Shown here piece by piece: positions 11,713 to 26,938 of a DNA stretch of 64,000 bases. Position numbers and translations under genes: made by a program. The notes beneath the pieces are model-generated. The model was not told where the DNA came from, did not search any database, and saw nothing but the letters and a program-made list of their open reading frames with translations. Source of the stretch: Escherichia phage ECML-134; sequence record JX128259. One strand, 5' to 3'. Every line of letters starts with the position of its first letter. The stretch's first letter is position 1.

Positions 11713-11928
11713 TTACCCCAGTTTGACCATACAATCGCCGTATTTCCACTTAGAAATAGACTTTTCACCATTAGAATAATAAACTTCAAGTTTAGCACGA
11801 TTATTTTTAATTTGAATAACCTTTGCTGTCATCAAAGTTCCATACCCATAGTAAACTGCAACTTCATCACCTACATATACCGCGCTTCCACGATAATCAT
11901 GGATATAATCAGTTCCTTCGAGCGTCAT
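11713..11928 (-). CDS. Hypothetical protein
   Basis: 71 aa ORF; 4-nt overlap with nrdC stop. Confidence 0.45.
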   Translation of the reverse strand: MTLEGTDYIHDYRGSAVYVGDEVAVYYGYGTLMTAKVIQIKNNRAKLEVYYSNGEKSISKWKYGDCMVKLG

Positions 11929-12188
11929 TTAAAGTATTCCCGCAATTGGTCAAATCCACCAATATGACTTCCATCAGGAGCAAATACCTGAGGCATTGTT
12001 AAGCCGATTTGAGTATCACGACCTAGTTTCGTCAGAAGCTCAGCAATTTTCTCATCATCAAAAACACCTTTTTCCGGCATAATGTTGATAAATTCAAACG
12101 GCTGTTTCTTCACGGTCAAAAGACGTTTTGCATTATCGCAGTACACACATTTGTGGATGTTGCTATCATAACCATATACTTTAAACAT
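11925..12188 (-). CDS. nrdC: Thioredoxin/glutaredoxin NrdC
   Basis: 87 aa; CVYC active-site motif; length matches T4 nrdC. Confidence 0.8.
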   Translation of the reverse strand: MFKVYGYDSNIHKCVYCDNAKRLLTVKKQPFEFINIMPEKGVFDDEKIAELLTKLGRDTQIGLTMPQVFAPDGSHIGGFDQLREYFK

Positions 12189-12189
12189 A

Positions 12190-12432
12190 TTATTCCTTAA
12201 TTCCTAGTACTTGTTTAAAAGTCTCGTCGTAATCAAGACTTTGGCCCGTTTGTTCTTTATGTTTGTACATAATATCACTTACTTCTGATAGCATATTTTT
12301 ATATGAACGAGTTAAAGCAGATTTAAGCACGCTGTATCTATCAGGAAATTTACCATGTTCATTATAATAAGCTATTACTAATTCACGGACTGCCTTTTCA
12401 GCAGTCTCCATATATTCTTTACGCTTGGTCAT
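12190..12432 (-). CDS. Hypothetical protein (nrdC.1-like position)
   Basis: Start moved to internal Met ([13 protein letters not shown]...) of the 133 aa ORF; upstream part overlaps the preceding gene. Confidence 0.4.
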
Positions 12433-12736
12433 TTTCTTCTCGGTCAAATCGGTGTTTACAATGACGACATTTATAACGAAGATTACTAGTCTGCCAATGG
12501 ACCAATTGCACCTGTTCAGTTCCACATTCAGGGCAATTAGGAACGTTTTTAGAAGCCCTTTCACGACGTTCAACCATAACCATAATGGCATCCCAAGCAG
12601 GAGGTTTAAAGTCTAAATCGTCACAACCATGAATCTTTCCACGCATTTCCAAATCGTCTTCTTCACCAGCCATAATAATTTTAATTAGACTAGAATTACT
12701 TGAAGCTGCAATGTCTTCTAATAGACGCTTTTTCAT
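12419..12736 (-). CDS. Hypothetical zinc-ribbon protein
   Basis: 105 aa; C-terminal CPECG...CRHCKH four-cysteine motif. Confidence 0.5.
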
Positions 12737-13662
12737 TTCAATACCTCAATAGCATTACGTAAACCATTTGCTTTTGCATTAAGAGCTTTTAACAATTTGG
12801 TGTGTTCTGCAATTTGGGCTTCAACTTCAATCAAACGAGCATTGAGATATTCGCGTTCTTCACTCAGATTATCAACCTTTTCTACTTTAGGCTCTTTTAC
12901 AACTGTCTTATATGTATTAGGGTTCTTCAGTTTAATTAGAATGCGTGAACTGTATAACATTGAACCATTATTTTCGGTTTCGTCATACATTTCTACTACA
13001 TCCATAATTTTTAACATCATGCGGAGTTTATAAGACAACGAACGAATAGTTTTGTTGTGCTTATTAATTTCTTTAGCTGTCATGGTGCCGAGATTACGTG
13101 AGTAATAATAAGGAACCTGGATATTAATTAATACTGATGAACCACCTGGCTTGTGTGTTACTTCATCAGCAATAACCCAGTCCTTAACATGAACTGTATT
13201 TGTACGGTCATCACCCGCGGTAAACAGTTTGCGAGCATGCTTAAAAAGCATATTCACTTGGTCATTGAATTGACAAGCAAATTTATCAGCAAATTTAGTT
13301 TCAGGAATGGTAGATAACCAATCAGCCAAATGAGTCTTTTTAACATCGTTAACAATAGTAAATTCAACCAAATCGGTTATAGATGTCTCAGATTTAATAA
13401 AGCTCGGCTTCATAAAGTTTTTAATGTTATCGTGAGCTACAGTAGAAGATAACATACGAGAACGTTTAAACCATTCAAGCAAATTACCTAACGAATGAGA
13501 ATAAGCGTTTTGAGTATCTTTACAGATATGATTTTCCTGGCCAACATATTGAAGGAAATCACGAAGAATATTATTGATTACTGCTCTGTGTCCGATCTGA
13601 TAATTACGGTGTTTAGTAATAAGACTGTCAAAATAATCAATATAATGTTTACGAGTTTTCAT
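12733..13662 (-). CDS. Hypothetical protein with C-terminal coiled coil (array member 1 of 4)
   Basis: 309 aa; last ~45 aa have heptad-like charged/Leu pattern ([42 protein letters not shown]). Confidence 0.6.
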   Translation of the reverse strand: MKTRKHYIDYFDSLITKHRNYQIGHRAVINNILRDFLQYVGQENHICKDTQNAYSHSLGNLLEWFKRSRMLSSTVAHDNIKNFMKPSFIKSETSITDLVEFTIVNDVKKTHLADWLSTIPETKFADKFACQFNDQVNMLFKHARKLFTAGDDRTNTVHVKDWVIADEVTHKPGGSSVLINIQVPYYYSRNLGTMTAKEINKHNKTIRSLSYKLRMMLKIMDVVEMYDETENNGSMLYSSRILIKLKNPNTYKTVVKEPKVEKVDNLSEEREYLNARLIEVEAQIAEHTKLLKALNAKANGLRNAIEVLK

Positions 13663-13716
13663 GTTCTTCTCACTTGGTTAATGATTTATACTCCGAGCCA
13701 TCCTTGGCTTTAAATT

Positions 13717-14718
13717 TTACTTAATTAACTGTAAAGCTTGTTCAAGACGATCAAGACGATTAACAGATTCTTCCCAAATCTTTTTAGCCTGCTCATATTC
13801 TTTCTGCGCTTTATTAGAAATTTCTAGAACTTCCTTATAAGCTTTTTCTAATGCAATAACTTCTGGACGAATTTCTACCGGTTCAGGTGAATCATCAAGA
13901 TTATCCATTAGTTCCTCAAGGGTAGTTTCTTCTTTAGGAGTATTCACAATTTCATCACATTTTTGTTGGTAAATTTCTTTATCAGTAGGTGAATAAGCAC
14001 ATTTCACTTCACGAAGGCTAATTACGAGTTTATATCCTTCCCAACCGCATATATTCTTAAAAGGATATGTATGAATATTTTCTACTGTTTCCATACAAAG
14101 TAATGCGGTCTCTAATTGACGAGTTATAGTGCTAGCAATTGAGAAAAATTTATTAATATTCTTTTGGTTAGTTTCTGGTGTAAAAAATCCATAATTCACA
14201 AAAATAGATACTTTATTTTTATCAAGTTCATATTCTTTTATGATAATCATATCAGAAGCCAAAGGATGAATTTGACGATAATCGCCATAACATAATTTAG
14301 AAGCTGATTTTAGAATCTGTCCTTTGAAAAGTCTGAAATTACTAATCCAACGACGAGTAAAAATATTCTCAGGGTCTTCTTTGACATTAAGATGATAAGA
14401 ATTAACATCACCGAACCAATTATATCCTACTACATCTTTGGTTCGTTTAATTTCTTTCCCAAAATTACCAAGAATATCCCGATTAACCAAATATGAAAGA
14501 AGACGAGACTCTTTAAAGGTTTTCTTGATAACATCTTTATCTACACGGCTAGAAATTTTACGAATTTCATGAATAAATTTAGTAGAAGAAACAATACTTG
14601 CATCAACACTATTGAGCCATTGATTGATAATAGAAAGAACTATATTTTGGCCAAACATCGGTATAGCTTTATCATCAATAACGCTATTGAATGATTTGAT
14701 ATATTCGTTACGAGTCAT
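13717..14718 (-). CDS. Hypothetical protein with C-terminal coiled coil (array member 2 of 4)
   Basis: Start at MTRNEY after RBS gaggag; the first 10 codons of the track ORF overlap the promoter; C-terminal coiled coil. Confidence 0.6.
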   Translation of the reverse strand: MTRNEYIKSFNSVIDDKAIPMFGQNIVLSIINQWLNSVDASIVSSTKFIHEIRKISSRVDKDVIKKTFKESRLLSYLVNRDILGNFGKEIKRTKDVVGYNWFGDVNSYHLNVKEDPENIFTRRWISNFRLFKGQILKSASKLCYGDYRQIHPLASDMIIIKEYELDKNKVSIFVNYGFFTPETNQKNINKFFSIASTITRQLETALLCMETVENIHTYPFKNICGWEGYKLVISLREVKCAYSPTDKEIYQQKCDEIVNTPKEETTLEELMDNLDDSPEPVEIRPEVIALEKAYKEVLEISNKAQKEYEQAKKIWEESVNRLDRLEQALQLIK

Positions 14719-14749
14719 ATTAATCTCCTCAGTAGAAAGTAAGAACATT

Positions 14750-14782
14750 ATACCACATCCTTGTGGAAAAGTAAACTAGTTC
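14750..14782 (-). promoter_or_regulatory. Early promoter with spacer stem-loop
   Basis: Reverse strand GTTTAC-ttttccacaaggatgtgg-TATAAT; hairpin ccaca-tcct-tgtgg in the spacer. Confidence 0.55.
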
Positions 14783-15798
14783 AGTGCATTTAGTGCATTG
14801 TTCAGTTTAGAACGTTGCTTCGTAAGATTTTTGACTTTTTCTTGAGCTTTTTCCAGCATCTTTTCAGCTTCTAACACTTCATTAGTTGCTTTAACAAGTT
14901 CATCATCTACTGCCTTGATAGACTTCTCAATCGCATCCGCGTGCCATTTTTCAACAGGTTTAAGACTCGGATTTTCAATAGGAAGAAAATTCACTTTATT
15001 GAATTTCCATGCATCTTTATTACCTGAGCTATACATCCAAAATTTAGGATCGTTTGATGAGCAATTAGATAAATTTAAGTTATCTTGCACTTCCTGCTTT
15101 TTCTCTTGCGGGACTTCATCCTTTCTCAAAAAATCATATTTAAATGAAACGATCATATCAAGTTCATACGTTGTTGTATGTTCCCAATTTCGCTCAAAAT
15201 GAGGTAAAATCTTAGACTGAACTGCAGCAACAACATCCATATACTTAAATGCTTCTGTCAACTGCGATTTAAGGCATTCGCAAATTGAAAGAGAATTTTT
15301 TGTATTAGGTTTAAAGCTAATTCGTGCAGTTCTATTATTTTCTTTTAACGGTCTTACTTCCATCTGAAGAGTATAACCATCAAATTTCAGGTTCTTTAAG
15401 TTAATGTCAGAACCTTTTAATCGACTAGCCGTCGACAAAATTTGCTTTAATTGTTTACGGAATAGAGCAATAAATCTCCATTCAATACGATAATGATTTG
15501 GATTGAAAAATCCAGATGATAAATCGACCTTACTCTGACCAACACCTTGAACAAATAGAGGATTTTTATAATCAATAGTTTTACAGAAATCGGTGAGCTG
15601 CTCACGAGCAGTCATTTGTGTAATATATCCTGCTTCGCTAAAATTACGCACCCATTCGCTGCTGTTCAAATGTTTAAAGGCATGAATTGAACAATTAACT
15701 TTACCAAGGTCTAAATTATTTTCACACAAAAATGTCATAGCATCACGAGTATAGCTGGCATTACGAACCATATCTTCAATTTGAGAACGAGTTTTCAT
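14776..15798 (-). CDS. Hypothetical protein with C-terminal coiled coil (array member 3 of 4)
   Basis: 340 aa; N-terminus MKTR like member 1; C-terminal coiled coil. Confidence 0.6.
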   Translation of the reverse strand: MKTRSQIEDMVRNASYTRDAMTFLCENNLDLGKVNCSIHAFKHLNSSEWVRNFSEAGYITQMTAREQLTDFCKTIDYKNPLFVQGVGQSKVDLSSGFFNPNHYRIEWRFIALFRKQLKQILSTASRLKGSDINLKNLKFDGYTLQMEVRPLKENNRTARISFKPNTKNSLSICECLKSQLTEAFKYMDVVAAVQSKILPHFERNWEHTTTYELDMIVSFKYDFLRKDEVPQEKKQEVQDNLNLSNCSSNDPKFWMYSSGNKDAWKFNKVNFLPIENPSLKPVEKWHADAIEKSIKAVDDELVKATNEVLEAEKMLEKAQEKVKNLTKQRSKLNNALNALN

Positions 15799-15806
15799 GG
15801 TGTTCC

Positions 15807-16694
15807 TTAAGATTTAAGTAAATCAACAATTTTAATTAACTTTTCACGCTCAGATTTAGCTTTACTACTCAGTCCAGATAGTCTGAAAATTTCATCGTCA
15901 TATTGTTGAATAGAAATATTCAGCTCTTCAATCTGTTTATTAAAATAATCAATTTGTTCAGAATGTTTTTCGTTACTACGAACTGGTGCAGGTTTTGTAG
16001 GCAATTTAGTTGAACTGGATTTATCCGGGCGATAAATTAAAATGCAATTTGAACCAATCGGGCATTTAGCACCAGATGAATATTCTAACGTTCCAGCTTC
16101 TTTTAAAACTTCAAAAGCTAAACAGAGATGATGCCCCATATTAACATAATCCGTAGAGCGAGCTCTGACGTAATAATCATCTCCACGAGTACTAAATTTA
16201 AAGCATTTAAGGTCTTCTGTATTATTAGTTTTAAAAATCATTTGTTTATCTAGACCTTTAGCTAATCGAGCGCCTAATGCTAATAATCGTCGTTGATTTT
16301 CCCACAAATCCGCAATCATTTGGTCGAATGATAATTTTGGCATTAGTCGGCCATAAAGGTCATATCCTTTATTATAATTACGAAGGATTTCACTCGCGTT
16401 AATACGAGACAACGCTCCAATTTTATTAAGGGCTTTCATGATGCGATTAGATAAACCCATTCCAGACCCGTTTGTTCGTTGTAAATGTTTTTCTAATCCA
16501 AACCCAATATCAACTTTAAACTTATCTAAAATTTCTGCATGAACATCTCTGTCAATAACATTCAAATCCAAAGTTGGGTTAAATCTATGAAAAAATTTAT
16601 CCGGCTCTCCACGACGAAGTACAGTCCATTCATTCAATTTTTTATTAACTAAAGATTTAATTACTGCATTGACATTATTAATTACTACTGACAT
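15807..16694 (-). CDS. Hypothetical protein with C-terminal coiled coil (array member 4 of 4)
   Basis: Start at MSVVINN after gagtgagg RBS; C-terminal coiled coil. Confidence 0.55.
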   Translation of the reverse strand: MSVVINNVNAVIKSLVNKKLNEWTVLRRGEPDKFFHRFNPTLDLNVIDRDVHAEILDKFKVDIGFGLEKHLQRTNGSGMGLSNRIMKALNKIGALSRINASEILRNYNKGYDLYGRLMPKLSFDQMIADLWENQRRLLALGARLAKGLDKQMIFKTNNTEDLKCFKFSTRGDDYYVRARSTDYVNMGHHLCLAFEVLKEAGTLEYSSGAKCPIGSNCILIYRPDKSSSTKLPTKPAPVRSNEKHSEQIDYFNKQIEELNISIQQYDDEIFRLSGLSSKAKSEREKLIKIVDLLKS

Positions 16695-16701
16695 ATTTTC
16701 C

Positions 16702-17103
16702 TCACTCAATTTTACCAATTACGCGGAATAAGATTGAACAAACTATATAAGTACCACATATAGATTGAACTAATGCCATTCCAAAGAACCAAACAATATT
16801 ATCAAACCATGTCTGTTTTACGTCGAAAGGACGTAAACTTACAGTAATATTATCACCTTTTTCTATTGAAGAATACATCTCTGGTGAAATATATTCGCTA
16901 AATCTATAACCGTCTTTGAGTTCATATACGGCAATAAACGATAAACTAGATCCCTTTCCTTGAGTTCCTGTAAAGGTATTAACTACAGTAACATCATAAT
17001 CTTTATAATGCATATAATCATTAATTGCGTAATAACCATATGCAATTACTATACATAAACAACATATCAATAAATTCAATCTTTTAATTATCAACTGTTT
17101 CAT
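16702..17103 (-). CDS. Hypothetical membrane protein
   Basis: 133 aa; two hydrophobic segments at N- and C-termini. Confidence 0.5.
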   Translation of the reverse strand: MKQLIIKRLNLLICCLCIVIAYGYYAINDYMHYKDYDVTVVNTFTGTQGKGSSLSFIAVYELKDGYRFSEYISPEMYSSIEKGDNITVSLRPFDVKQTWFDNIVWFFGMALVQSICGTYIVCSILFRVIGKIE

Positions 17104-17158
17104 AATAATCTCAATTAAAAGGGCTTAGAACCATTATACCATCCTTGGTATAAAGCGG

Positions 17159-17686
17159 TTATGCGAGTACCGTCTTTAACCGTTCTTCAAATTTCCGAAG
17201 AGTATTCTGGCGTTCAGCTCTTTGCTTTTTGTAAGTTTCAATACGCTCTGAAATGAGAGTGTATCGTTCATTTACTGATTCTTTCATAAAATCAGGAATT
17301 TCACGAGAAGCTTTAATCTCATCAAATTTATCAATAACAGCTTGCTCTTCAGCAATTAAGTTATCATACATCAAAATATCTTTCTTGATGAACTCAATAT
17401 CTTCTTGAGTTACACGAGATAACTTAGATGCTTTATCCTTTTTGTACTGTTCGTTAGTATCACGAGACCAGTGTAATGTACGATTTTTATTCGTATTTTT
17501 GTAAATTTCTACAATACCAATCTCATCGATAATAACGATCCAATTCCAACGAGATTTGTAAATTTGCCCTCCGTCAACCGTGATTTCACCTCCGATTGAG
17601 ATGTCATTAAAGAACTTGCTTTGTGCTTCAGATTTAAATTTACCATCGTTGTAATTTACCAGGTTGAAAATATCTTTAGCGTTCAT
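17159..17686 (-). CDS. Hypothetical protein with coiled-coil C-terminus
   Basis: Start at MNAKDIF; the first 20 codons of the track ORF are the reverse read of the promoter. Confidence 0.5.
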   Translation of the reverse strand: MNAKDIFNLVNYNDGKFKSEAQSKFFNDISIGGEITVDGGQIYKSRWNWIVIIDEIGIVEIYKNTNKNRTLHWSRDTNEQYKKDKASKLSRVTQEDIEFIKKDILMYDNLIAEEQAVIDKFDEIKASREIPDFMKESVNERYTLISERIETYKKQRAERQNTLRKFEERLKTVLA

Positions 17687-17704
17687 TTTGTGTTCCTCCG
17701 TAGT

Positions 17705-17750
17705 TGATAGTTGTATAGTACCACAGAGGAACGGTCTTGTAAACAACTAA
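17705..17750 (-). promoter_or_regulatory. Early promoter
   Basis: tgtaaaca at 17738-17745 on plus strand (rc GTTTACA) with gatagttgtatagtaccac -10 region. Confidence 0.5.
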
Positions 17751-18061
17751 AAGAAACTTCTTTCACAATTTTTTCCACTGAACCAAGCGCTCACTGCTTT
17801 CTTAGTCTCAGGAGCGGTGTTATCCATAAACCATTCAAAGGCAGCCTTTTTATGATTCTGGAGGGCTTCTCGGGCTTTAATCTGCTCACGGTCTATTAAC
17901 ACTAACATATGAGCCTTTCTTGTCACCATGGGCTTCTTATGATTTTTTGAATATTCCCAATCATTTGTCCAGCGCATCGTTGTTGCGAATTGAAGTACAG
18001 CTTCTTTAATCTTAGTTTCGTAAATTTCACGAGCCTTTGAGTATAACATCATTACCTCCAT
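17747..18061 (-). CDS. Hypothetical protein
   Basis: 104 aa ORF. Confidence 0.45.
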   Translation of the reverse strand: MEVMMLYSKAREIYETKIKEAVLQFATTMRWTNDWEYSKNHKKPMVTRKAHMLVLIDREQIKAREALQNHKKAAFEWFMDNTAPETKKAVSAWFSGKNCERSFF

Positions 18062-18150
18062 TTACCAGTTTAATTCTAGTCATCTTTTTAATGGCAGTCC
18101 ATATAATCTATTTCTGAACTGCCTTTTGTCTTAGAAGTCCTCTTATGAAT

Positions 18151-19119
18151 TTATTTCAGAAGAGTAACCGTAGCAATTTCTTCCCAATGATTTTTGTCGG
18201 TCATAATAAAGTCAGCAAGATAAAGAGCAGTACGCAGTGAAACATTGCGTAAACGGTTAACATTGACTTTCATCCATGATAATGCTTTATAAGTTTCTTC
18301 ATCAGAAAGACCGCGCTTTTGCATCATGTCGGTTGAAAGAATAACATCTTCAACCCTGACCATAATTTCTTCATTAGTGTGAACACCCAAATCCAAATAA
18401 ACTGAGCGGGACACTAATGCTTGTAAATGTGGAGCAAGTTTAGTACCACGGTCTAATTCGCGGTCAATATCAACGTTTGTGATAAAAACAATCGTTCCTT
18501 TAAATTCAAACTCACGCTCAATGCCTTTTTCTTCTAAGTAAGAAGATGCGGTGCTCCAGCAGACTTTACGGGTCTCTCCAGTGTCCAGAGCAGCTTTCAG
18601 AAGATTAAGAATGTCCATATCAGAGAAAACATCCACATCATCAATCAAAAGGACAGAATTCTCTTCACGATTATTCCAAAGCTGTTCATAAAGACCGATA
18701 CCAGAGATTTTACCATTAATGCTTTTATACTCAATGTATCCAATATCATTTGCTTTATTTAAAGCTTTATCTAAAGAATACGTTTTACCAATACCCGCCG
18801 CACCAGAGATAATTAATGAACGAATGTTTCCGTTAATAATACCATTCGTCATCATTCCCATAACATTAAATCTTTTATTAATGCGGGTTTTCATATCTTC
18901 ATATGATTCTTTAACTTCTTCAACTTTTACACCATCATATGAAATGTCTGATTTGTAAACCCAAACACCGCGACGCTTACCGTCAATTTCAACAAAAACT
19001 TTACCATCTCCTTGTGCATCTACCGGAGCATTATCTGGGAACCATTCACCTAAGAGCTCAAAAGTTCCAGAGATTTCTTTACCGAAGTAGATACCCTTAT
19101 TGATAGTTACAGTTTTCAT
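18151..19119 (-). CDS. P-loop NTPase (AAA-like ATPase)
   Basis: Walker A SGAAGIGKTYS and Walker B VLLIDDVD; start at MKTVTIN after ggagaataaa RBS. Confidence 0.65.
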   Translation of the reverse strand: MKTVTINKGIYFGKEISGTFELLGEWFPDNAPVDAQGDGKVFVEIDGKRRGVWVYKSDISYDGVKVEEVKESYEDMKTRINKRFNVMGMMTNGIINGNIRSLIISGAAGIGKTYSLDKALNKANDIGYIEYKSINGKISGIGLYEQLWNNREENSVLLIDDVDVFSDMDILNLLKAALDTGETRKVCWSTASSYLEEKGIEREFEFKGTIVFITNVDIDRELDRGTKLAPHLQALVSRSVYLDLGVHTNEEIMVRVEDVILSTDMMQKRGLSDEETYKALSWMKVNVNRLRNVSLRTALYLADFIMTDKNHWEEIATVTLLK

Positions 19120-26400: not shown

Positions 26401-26938
26401 TTACTATTTCCAAAAGTTTATTATTTTTAAGGTAATTAGCCTTTTCTAGGACTTCAGAAGCATATTTAGAACCAGCTTTAACATTCCATCCCGAATTATA
26501 AGAGGATATTGCTTTTCTTATATCGCCCTTATGTATATTTAACCAATAAGAAAGTTCAATGTACGCCCAGGAAGCTGAATTGGATCGTTTATTCAACATT
26601 CTTTTTATTTCAGCATCGGTCATATTATAACCAAGTTCCTTAACTCTTGCTCGCATAGTAGGCAAATAATTTTGGAACATTCCGTAGGCGTGATGCTTTG
26701 GTTTAGATTTTAAATTAACTCCGCCAGAGCTTTCTTGCCATAAAATAGCAGCCATTATATGACCTAATCCGCTCTTGTGGATATTTTTGTGTGTTTTATA
26801 TTTTCCATCCTTAGAAAATTGTTCCCCGAATTGATACGCGTAACGCATGTTATCGAGTTGGACATTACTGAAAGTATGCTCGGAGCTATGTGCCATCATT
26901 GAAATGGCCAATAGACCAGCGAGTAGTGCTTTTCTCAT
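26393..26938 (-). CDS. Periplasmic lytic-transglycosylase-like protein (SLT domain)
   Basis: Signal peptide MRKALLAGLLAISMMAHS; ILWQESSGG...YGMFQ resembles the SLT catalytic E-S / GLMQ block. Confidence 0.55.
   Translation of the reverse strand: MRKALLAGLLAISMMAHSSEHTFSNVQLDNMRYAYQFGEQFSKDGKYKTHKNIHKSGLGHIMAAILWQESSGGVNLKSKPKHHAYGMFQNYLPTMRARVKELGYNMTDAEIKRMLNKRSNSASWAYIELSYWLNIHKGDIRKAISSYNSGWNVKAGSKYASEVLEKANYLKNNKLLEIVND

Follow-up and report, generated by a model that had tools for sequence, protein, structure and literature searches.

The sequence analyzed here is a stretch of 64,000 nucleotides from Escherichia phage ECML-134 (JX128259), referred to below as the window. It shares 99.4-99.9% identity with bases 32001-96000 of Escherichia phage vB_EcoM_SCS4 (genus Tequatrovirus). 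Close to the nrdC gene (11925-12188) lie four consecutive genes on the minus strand, encoding proteins of 309, 333, 340, and 295 amino acids (aa). Comparison with the annotated T4 reference showed that they are one-to-one orthologs of T4 nrdC.3, nrdC.4, nrdC.5, and nrdC.6 (members 1 to 4, respectively). An initial annotation of the window had described them as a tandem array at 12733-16718. The number, strand, and sizes of the genes were confirmed, as was the left edge of the array; the right edge has to be moved, since position 16718 is a TTG upstream of the annotated ATG start of nrdC.6 at 16694. The MKTR start common to members 1 and 3 and the TRxxYIxxFxS(L/V)I pattern in members 1 and 2 are also present as described. 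The open reading frame (ORF) of nrdC.4 is open up to 14748, but the ATG there sits within the -10 hexamer of a promoter; the start was placed at the ATG at 14718, which has a GAGGAG ribosome-binding site and agrees with the T4 annotation. The genes themselves are known from T4. The new proposal is that these four genes and their relatives across the T4-like phages would constitute one family, which includes a published factor against the Dsr1 defence.

The four proteins were assigned to known families of the Pfam and PHROGs databases (Table 1). Members 1 and 2 match phrog_1435 (E 1.6e-116 and 5e-168, respectively), and PF26897 (Phage_T4_Y04OP) is carried by all nrdC.3/nrdC.4 homologs recovered. 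Member 3 matches the Pfam family DUF7235 (PF23882) with 421 bits (cut-off 30; E 3e-126) over model positions 1-307 of 307. Member 4 matches phrog_2257 (E 7e-152), and PF26899 was found in all of its homologs recovered. The families PF26897 and PF26899, like phrog_1435, phrog_2351, and phrog_2257, are listed in the databases as being of unknown function. PF26897, PF26899, DUF7235, phrog_1435, phrog_2351, and phrog_2257 are kept separate there, and a link of nrdC.5 to nrdC.3, nrdC.4, and nrdC.6 is unrecorded. None of the four proteins gave a thioredoxin match in Pfam or NCBIfam. In many GenBank and UniRef records, nrdC.1 to nrdC.11 (window 12190-19119) are labelled "thioredoxin". These labels were evidently taken over from the gene names; they are wrong and should not be propagated.

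Table 1. Features of the nrdC.3-nrdC.6 array (coordinates of the window; identity and the ratio of nonsynonymous to synonymous substitution rates, dN/dS, are given against T4; pLDDT, predicted local distance difference test)
Feature	Coordinates	Strand	Protein identity	dN/dS	Remarks
nrdC.3 ortholog (member 1)	12733..13662	-	61.6%	0.28	309 aa; PF26897 / phrog_1435; divergent allele
nrdC.4 ortholog (member 2)	13717..14718	-	97.9%	0.23	333 aa; PF26897 / phrog_1435; AlphaFold2 mean pLDDT 82.7
nrdC.5 ortholog (member 3)	14776..15798	-	91.8%	0.24	340 aa; DUF7235 / phrog_2351
nrdC.6 ortholog (member 4)	15807..16694	-	93.8% (97% over residues 1-258, ahead of the T4 frameshift)	0.18	295 aa; PF26899 / phrog_2257; AlphaFold2 mean pLDDT 76.6
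nrdC.3 C-terminal heptad-like helix	12736..12876	-			residues ~263-309
nrdC.4 C-terminal helix	13720..13866	-			residues 285-333
nrdC.5 C-terminal heptad-like helix	14779..14955	-			residues ~282-340
nrdC.6 C-terminal helices	15810..15962	-			residues 245-271 and 277-294
Early-type promoter before nrdC.4	14747..14775	-			TTTACT-N17-TATAAT with upstream TG; conserved in T4, JS10, SP18, CJ20
Spacer hairpin of the nrdC.4 promoter	14766-14753	-			CCACA-AGGA-TGTGG, between the -35 and -10 hexamers
Degenerate cassette copy upstream of nrdC.3	13683..13710	-			GCCAAGGATGGC hairpin, then TATAAAT; no good -35 hexamer
Candidate promoter upstream of nrdC.7	17120..17150	-			CCAAGGATGG element, then TATAAT

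The relationships among the four families were analyzed by pairwise and profile comparison. As judged by sequence, nrdC.3 and nrdC.4 are clear paralogs. They share 25% identity across 226 aa in BLASTP (E 2.6e-6), the hhalign probability is 98% (E 5e-14), and both phrog_1435 and PF26897 are common to them. This was the sole pair linked by direct BLASTP among the four members. In profile-profile comparison, shallow alignments of nrdC.4 and nrdC.5 gave a probability of 59-71%. When 1.84 billion representative proteins were searched exhaustively in HMMER, using the nrdC.3/4 profile, only 11 proteins were returned, none of them with a known function. One of these, the metagenomic protein P0267, resembles nrdC.4 at its N-terminus and nrdC.5 in its tail; its match to the nrdC.3/4 profile has a probability of 97% (E 1e-10), and that to the nrdC.5 profile one of 94% (E 1.3e-7). 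When P0267 and P0261, a further protein from the same search, were added to the alignments, nrdC.3/4 and nrdC.5 matched with 96.2% probability (E 2.3e-9) over 251 collinear columns. Only with this metagenomic bridge protein did the link between them become solid. The alignments without the bridge protein still gave 73% (E 3e-5) after removal of the last 60 residues. As a control, the nrdC.3/4 profile was compared with the 70 ORFs of at least 100 aa in the window, and it matched nrdC.5 alone (71%; next best 5.8%). No link of the family profiles to any structural gene was found when all ORFs of the window were scanned. The placement of nrdC.5 as a paralog of nrdC.3 and nrdC.4 thus holds by profile-profile comparison.

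The kinship of nrdC.6 to the other members is a weaker link than the rest, and was suggested by predicted structure only. In a Foldseek search of the BFVD database, the AlphaFold2 model of nrdC.4 matched JS10 NrdC.6 (E 4e-5). The models of nrdC.4 and nrdC.6 also match the same proteins from T4-like phages of Enterobacter, Acinetobacter, Erwinia, Yersinia, and Klebsiella. The order of elements is identical in the two models: a helical bundle, a long helix, a β-hairpin, a helix, a β-hairpin, a disordered linker, and a C-terminal helix. Weak matches to phrog_26858 were obtained from nrdC.4, nrdC.5, and two nrdC.6 homologs. Separately, two nrdC.6 homologs match phrog_3817 ("tail chaperonin") at E 3e-5. 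The old paralogy proposed in the initial annotation is therefore supported for nrdC.3, nrdC.4, and nrdC.5 by sequence profiles, and for nrdC.6 by predicted structure only. One-to-one orthology to T4 ORFs does not speak against a family, as had been supposed for unrelated ORFs, because the orthologous T4 ORFs are related to each other.

Sequence searches of the PDB for a related solved structure returned nothing useful. Residues 30-86 of nrdC.3 (window 12733-13662) weakly resemble the N-terminal SAM-like domain found in phage integrases and XerD, with matches below threshold. These matches (E 0.069 in Pfam; E 0.002-0.015 in NCBIfam) were found in 6 of the 31 family members scanned, and may reflect chance or a distant helical-bundle likeness. 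The Pfam and NCBIfam matches to the recombinase SAM-like domain and to PHL, being sub-threshold, were not relied on.

The proteins share a common build: the N-terminal helical bundle is followed by an α/β domain, from which a disordered linker leads to a heptad-like C-terminal helix of 45-60 aa. AlphaFold2 models based on the family alignments predicted a single helix at residues 285-332 of nrdC.4 and the two C-terminal helices of nrdC.6 given in Table 1. The tails were also evaluated with a home-made heptad score, using as background the same 70 ORFs, the four members included. All four tails score near the top, with at most six ORFs outscoring any of them, and their scores were matched by 0-9 of 300 shuffles. 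In addition, the nrdC.5 tail has weak matches to keratin and myosin coiled coils. These results support the heptad-like C-terminal helix reported for all four proteins. In every family, conservation is highest in the tail, and the tails of different families end alike, in L-x-x-A-h-x-x-h-K (h, hydrophobic). However, hidden Markov models (HMMs) built from the tails only gave no cross-match between families, so that hetero-oligomerisation through an identical tail is unsupported. The idea of one common tail sequence, also part of the initial annotation, was dropped; the tail HMMs are family-specific, and what is shared is the type of the tail and the short end motif. The neighbouring gene nrdC.8 (17159-17686, minus strand; 175 aa) likewise has a long charged, leucine-rich helix at its C-terminal end (...ERIETYKKQRAERQNTLRKFEERLKTVLA), and none of the array family profiles matched it.

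A biological function has been reported for one T4 protein of this group. Srikant et al. (eLife 2022, PMC9391042) found an evolved T4 clone with large deletions to be unable to infect the strain ECOR17 until dsr1 was disrupted in this host. Plasmid-borne T4 nrdC.5, termed an uncharacterised early gene, allowed the deletion phage to plate again on MG1655 carrying dsr1 (PMC9391042). T4 NrdC.5 has the same length and the same position as member 3. The anti-Dsr1 activity is that of the T4 protein; since the protein of the window is 91.8% identical to it, it would be expected to overcome Dsr1 as well. A role in host range, exclusion, or anti-defence had been suggested for the whole array, and it is correct for nrdC.5, whose T4 ortholog overcomes Dsr1 (PMC9391042); for the other three members it would be an extension. 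In the literature searched, nrdC.3, nrdC.4, and nrdC.6 appear in passing mentions only, and the mechanism of NrdC.5 is not described.

A functional analogue of NrdC.5 is DSAD1 of the SPbeta-like phages, which blocks DSR2, a defence-associated sirtuin NADase. Both are phage proteins acting against a sirtuin NADase; DSAD1 targets DSR2, whereas NrdC.5 targets Dsr1, and the sensors differ. DSAD1 is reported to compete with the tail tube protein for DSR2. DSAD1 and NrdC.5 showed no relationship in sequence or fold, although none was specifically tested for.

The distribution of the families was compared among phage genera. At the sequence level, they were found solely in the T-even coliphage genera. 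The array is nrdC.6-nrdC.5-nrdC.4-nrdC.3 in Tequatrovirus; nrdC.6, an nrdC.5-like gene, and nrdC.4 in Dhakavirus and Gaprivervirus; and an nrdC.6-like gene and an nrdC.3-like gene in Mosigvirus. The copy number per genus is thus 4, 3, or 2. In distant T4-like phages, those of Acinetobacter and Klebsiella, predicted structural relatives appear to fill the same genomic position, flanked by nrdC and nrdC.10; these are the tandem pair p120 and p121 of Acj61 and gp080 of Mineola. The genes of both phages were matched to BFVD entries by protein length, and those of Acj61 also by consecutive accession numbers. Several rearranged copies were identified. Manna_094 of Salmonella phage Manna is an in-frame hybrid of an nrdC.6 head (residues 1-269) and an nrdC.4 tail. 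In P0056, the middle of nrdC.5 is joined to the C-terminal half of nrdC.3. In ACG-C40, nrdC.5 and nrdC.3 are reduced to remnants. The nrdC.6 homolog of Shigella phage Sf25 (P0152, 378 aa) contains an 83-residue internal tandem duplication, with residues 176-258 present twice. The nrdC.6 gene of the T4 reference (NC_000866; L002:8997-9894) has a 1-nucleotide deletion at codon 259, with GAGCTG-ATATT in place of GAGCTGAATATT in the window gene (15807-16694). The annotated T4 protein is 275 aa long and has lost the tail helix; the tail-coding DNA is intact in another frame, and the full 295-aa NrdC.6 is encoded in other T4 records. This frameshift is due either to a mutation in a laboratory strain or to an error in sequencing.

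Sequence divergence was compared with that of the surrounding genes. The dN/dS values of the flanking genes are mostly 0-0.16, with the exceptions of nrdC.2 (0.26) and nrdC.10 (0.22). Within the genus, nrdC.4 and nrdC.5 are mostly 90-95% identical, compared with an identity of at least 99% for nrdC.10 in most genomes. The fast divergence noticed at first therefore holds relative to nrdC.10 as the comparator and in dN/dS against most flanking genes, but not against all of them. The nrdC.3 gene occurs as two deep alleles in Tequatrovirus, an SCS4 type and a T4 type, which are 61.6% identical; the Mosigvirus nrdC.3 is nearer than the T4 copy to the SCS4 type (78%). Between the allele of the window and that of T4 (L002:5934-6860), dS is 1.08; the N-terminus and the tail have been conserved, with replacement of the 180 residues in the centre. 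Conserved ends with a replaced centre suggest cassette exchange by recombination. The AAA-like gene nrdC.10 (18151-19119, minus strand), in contrast to the variable array beside it, is conserved very widely; it was found in 1310 phage records, including Vibrio, Aeromonas, Acinetobacter, and jumbo phages.

A promoter with a hairpin in its spacer does exist and is conserved. It is located in the gap between nrdC.4 and nrdC.5 (members 2 and 3); the initial annotation had wrongly placed it between members 1 and 2. Its conserved form in T4, JS10, SP18, and CJ20 is GTTTAC...CCAAGGATGG-like...GTATAAT. The combination of CCAAGGATGG and TATAA(T) also occurs upstream of nrdC.3 and nrdC.7 in the window, and upstream of nrdC.6 or nrdC.3 in JS10 and ESCO47. 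The CCAAGGATGG element alone is not enriched in the window (3 sites versus 1.9 expected); AAGGATG-N(2-9)-TATAA is enriched, with 3 sites versus 0.25 expected. One AAGGATG...TATAA copy, at 26796-26812 on the minus strand, is located about 10 kb from the array, in or beside small early ORFs. The genes nrdC.7, nrdC.6, and nrdC.5 are spaced by 8-nucleotide gaps, so the cassette before nrdC.7 is likely the promoter for nrdC.6 and nrdC.5. The array is probably split into three transcription units. A known comparison is with the PeSL (promoter-stem-loop) cassettes of T4-like phages (Arbiol 2010; Comeau 2014), for which the PST/T4 promoter consensus is TTTACW-N17-TAYWAT (Comeau et al. 2014). The nrdC.4 promoter fits this consensus, lies in a plastic region, and adjoins genes that are gained or lost. 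The PeSL stem-loop is upstream of the promoter, whereas the hairpin of the array is inside the spacer, where the CCAAGGATGG element recurs.

Taken together, we propose with moderate confidence that the array encodes one family of modular proteins acting in counter-defence or host range. The four genes would have arisen long ago by tandem duplication and would encode accessory proteins of the T-even phages that are expressed early and are not essential. The globular head, formed by the N-terminal helical bundle and the conserved α/β domain, would bind a host target, and the amphipathic C-terminal helix of 45-60 aa would self-associate and make the protein multivalent. Member 3 (NrdC.5) would neutralise the defence by the sirtuin NADase Dsr1, and the remaining three members might neutralise other host defence or exclusion proteins. 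Each transcription unit would have its own early-type promoter cassette, and copies would be gained, lost, replaced, and fused by recombination.

Several points weigh against this proposal. The functional data cover one of the four members, and the T4 ortholog rather than the protein of this phage; the anti-defence roles of nrdC.3, nrdC.4, and nrdC.6 and direct target binding are putative, as is oligomerisation through the tail. Sequence profiles gave no significant link of nrdC.6 to the other members (probability of at most 8%), and the Foldseek template modelling (TM) scores for its structural link are low (0.36-0.49), so that long helices may have inflated the match. A shared fold was seen in the predicted models of nrdC.4 and nrdC.6, the sole two members compared. 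The dN/dS values of 0.18-0.28 indicate mainly purifying selection; as they are below 1, there is no evidence for positive selection over the whole genes. Within the genus, the α/β domain is conserved and the variation is in the N-terminal bundle and the linker, which is not what would most simply be expected of a target-binding surface that evolves fast. In addition, the T4 frameshift removes the nrdC.6 tail, which suggests that this member is dispensable in the laboratory.

Other explanations were also considered. NrdC.5 might be the only anti-defence protein, with the other three having unrelated host-takeover roles (e.g. nucleic acid or host enzyme binding) and the tail being a generic dimerisation device. 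The families have diverged past BLAST recognition and persist in the different genera as separate lines of orthologs, which would fit distinct, stable functions; nrdC.6 is highly conserved in the genus, and the N-terminus of nrdC.3 has the weak, sub-threshold resemblance to the SAM-like DNA-binding domain of tyrosine recombinases. However, the recombinase matches are far under the curated cut-offs, the array sits in a hyperplastic accessory region, and dispensable host-range genes typically undergo losses, fusions, and allele replacement of this kind. Such a division of roles is regarded as unlikely. The suggestion that the four proteins form one hetero-oligomeric complex, assembled via their tails and working as a unit, has very little probability. 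The genes are adjacent and probably co-expressed, the tails are all heptad-like with the end motif in common, and Manna_094, if functional, pairs the head of one family with the tail of another. Nevertheless, the copy number of 2 to 4 across genera implies that no fixed stoichiometry is conserved, and the family-specific tail HMMs do not cross-match. Moreover, plasmid-borne nrdC.5 alone restores plating on Dsr1 cells, although the extent of the deletion across the array in that phage was unchecked.

The array proteins could instead be early structural decoys, found across the Straboviridae, in which the α/β domain mimics a conserved virion protein and the coiled-coil tail gives multivalency. 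In pattern-recognition defences such as Dsr1 and the Avs families, they would block the sensor domains without activating them, each paralog blinding a different sensor. Phage major capsid proteins are reported to trigger the sensor that Dsr1 has in common with Avs7, and the tail terminator, the tail tube, and further core proteins to be recognised by other Avs families (2026 Nature, PMC13581612). Tail terminators are among the weak BFVD matches of the nrdC.4 model, whose α/β domain may have a tail-terminator-like fold; this likeness in a predicted structure, seen for nrdC.4 only, is weak evidence but compatible with a decoy for sensors that detect virion proteins. The block of DSR2 by DSAD1 would also be in line with decoys. 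However, the likeness to a virion protein was not seen for nrdC.5, the member with a known function; the sensor binding is putative, and the reported trigger of Dsr1 is the capsid protein. The array proteins have no sequence similarity to tail terminator and completion proteins (lambda gpU, T5 p142, SPP1 gp17-like), and they have an additional N-terminal bundle and a coiled-coil tail. Tail terminators are late structural genes in the tail block, whereas the array genes are outside it, behind an early-type promoter cassette. The decoy explanation seems quite improbable.

NrdC.5 is one of the few proteins by which phages are known to counter sirtuin-based NAD-depleting immunity, and under the reading proposed here it would belong to a family of up to four tandem relatives. 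The three "hypothetical proteins" beside it would then become specific candidates for new counter-defence factors.

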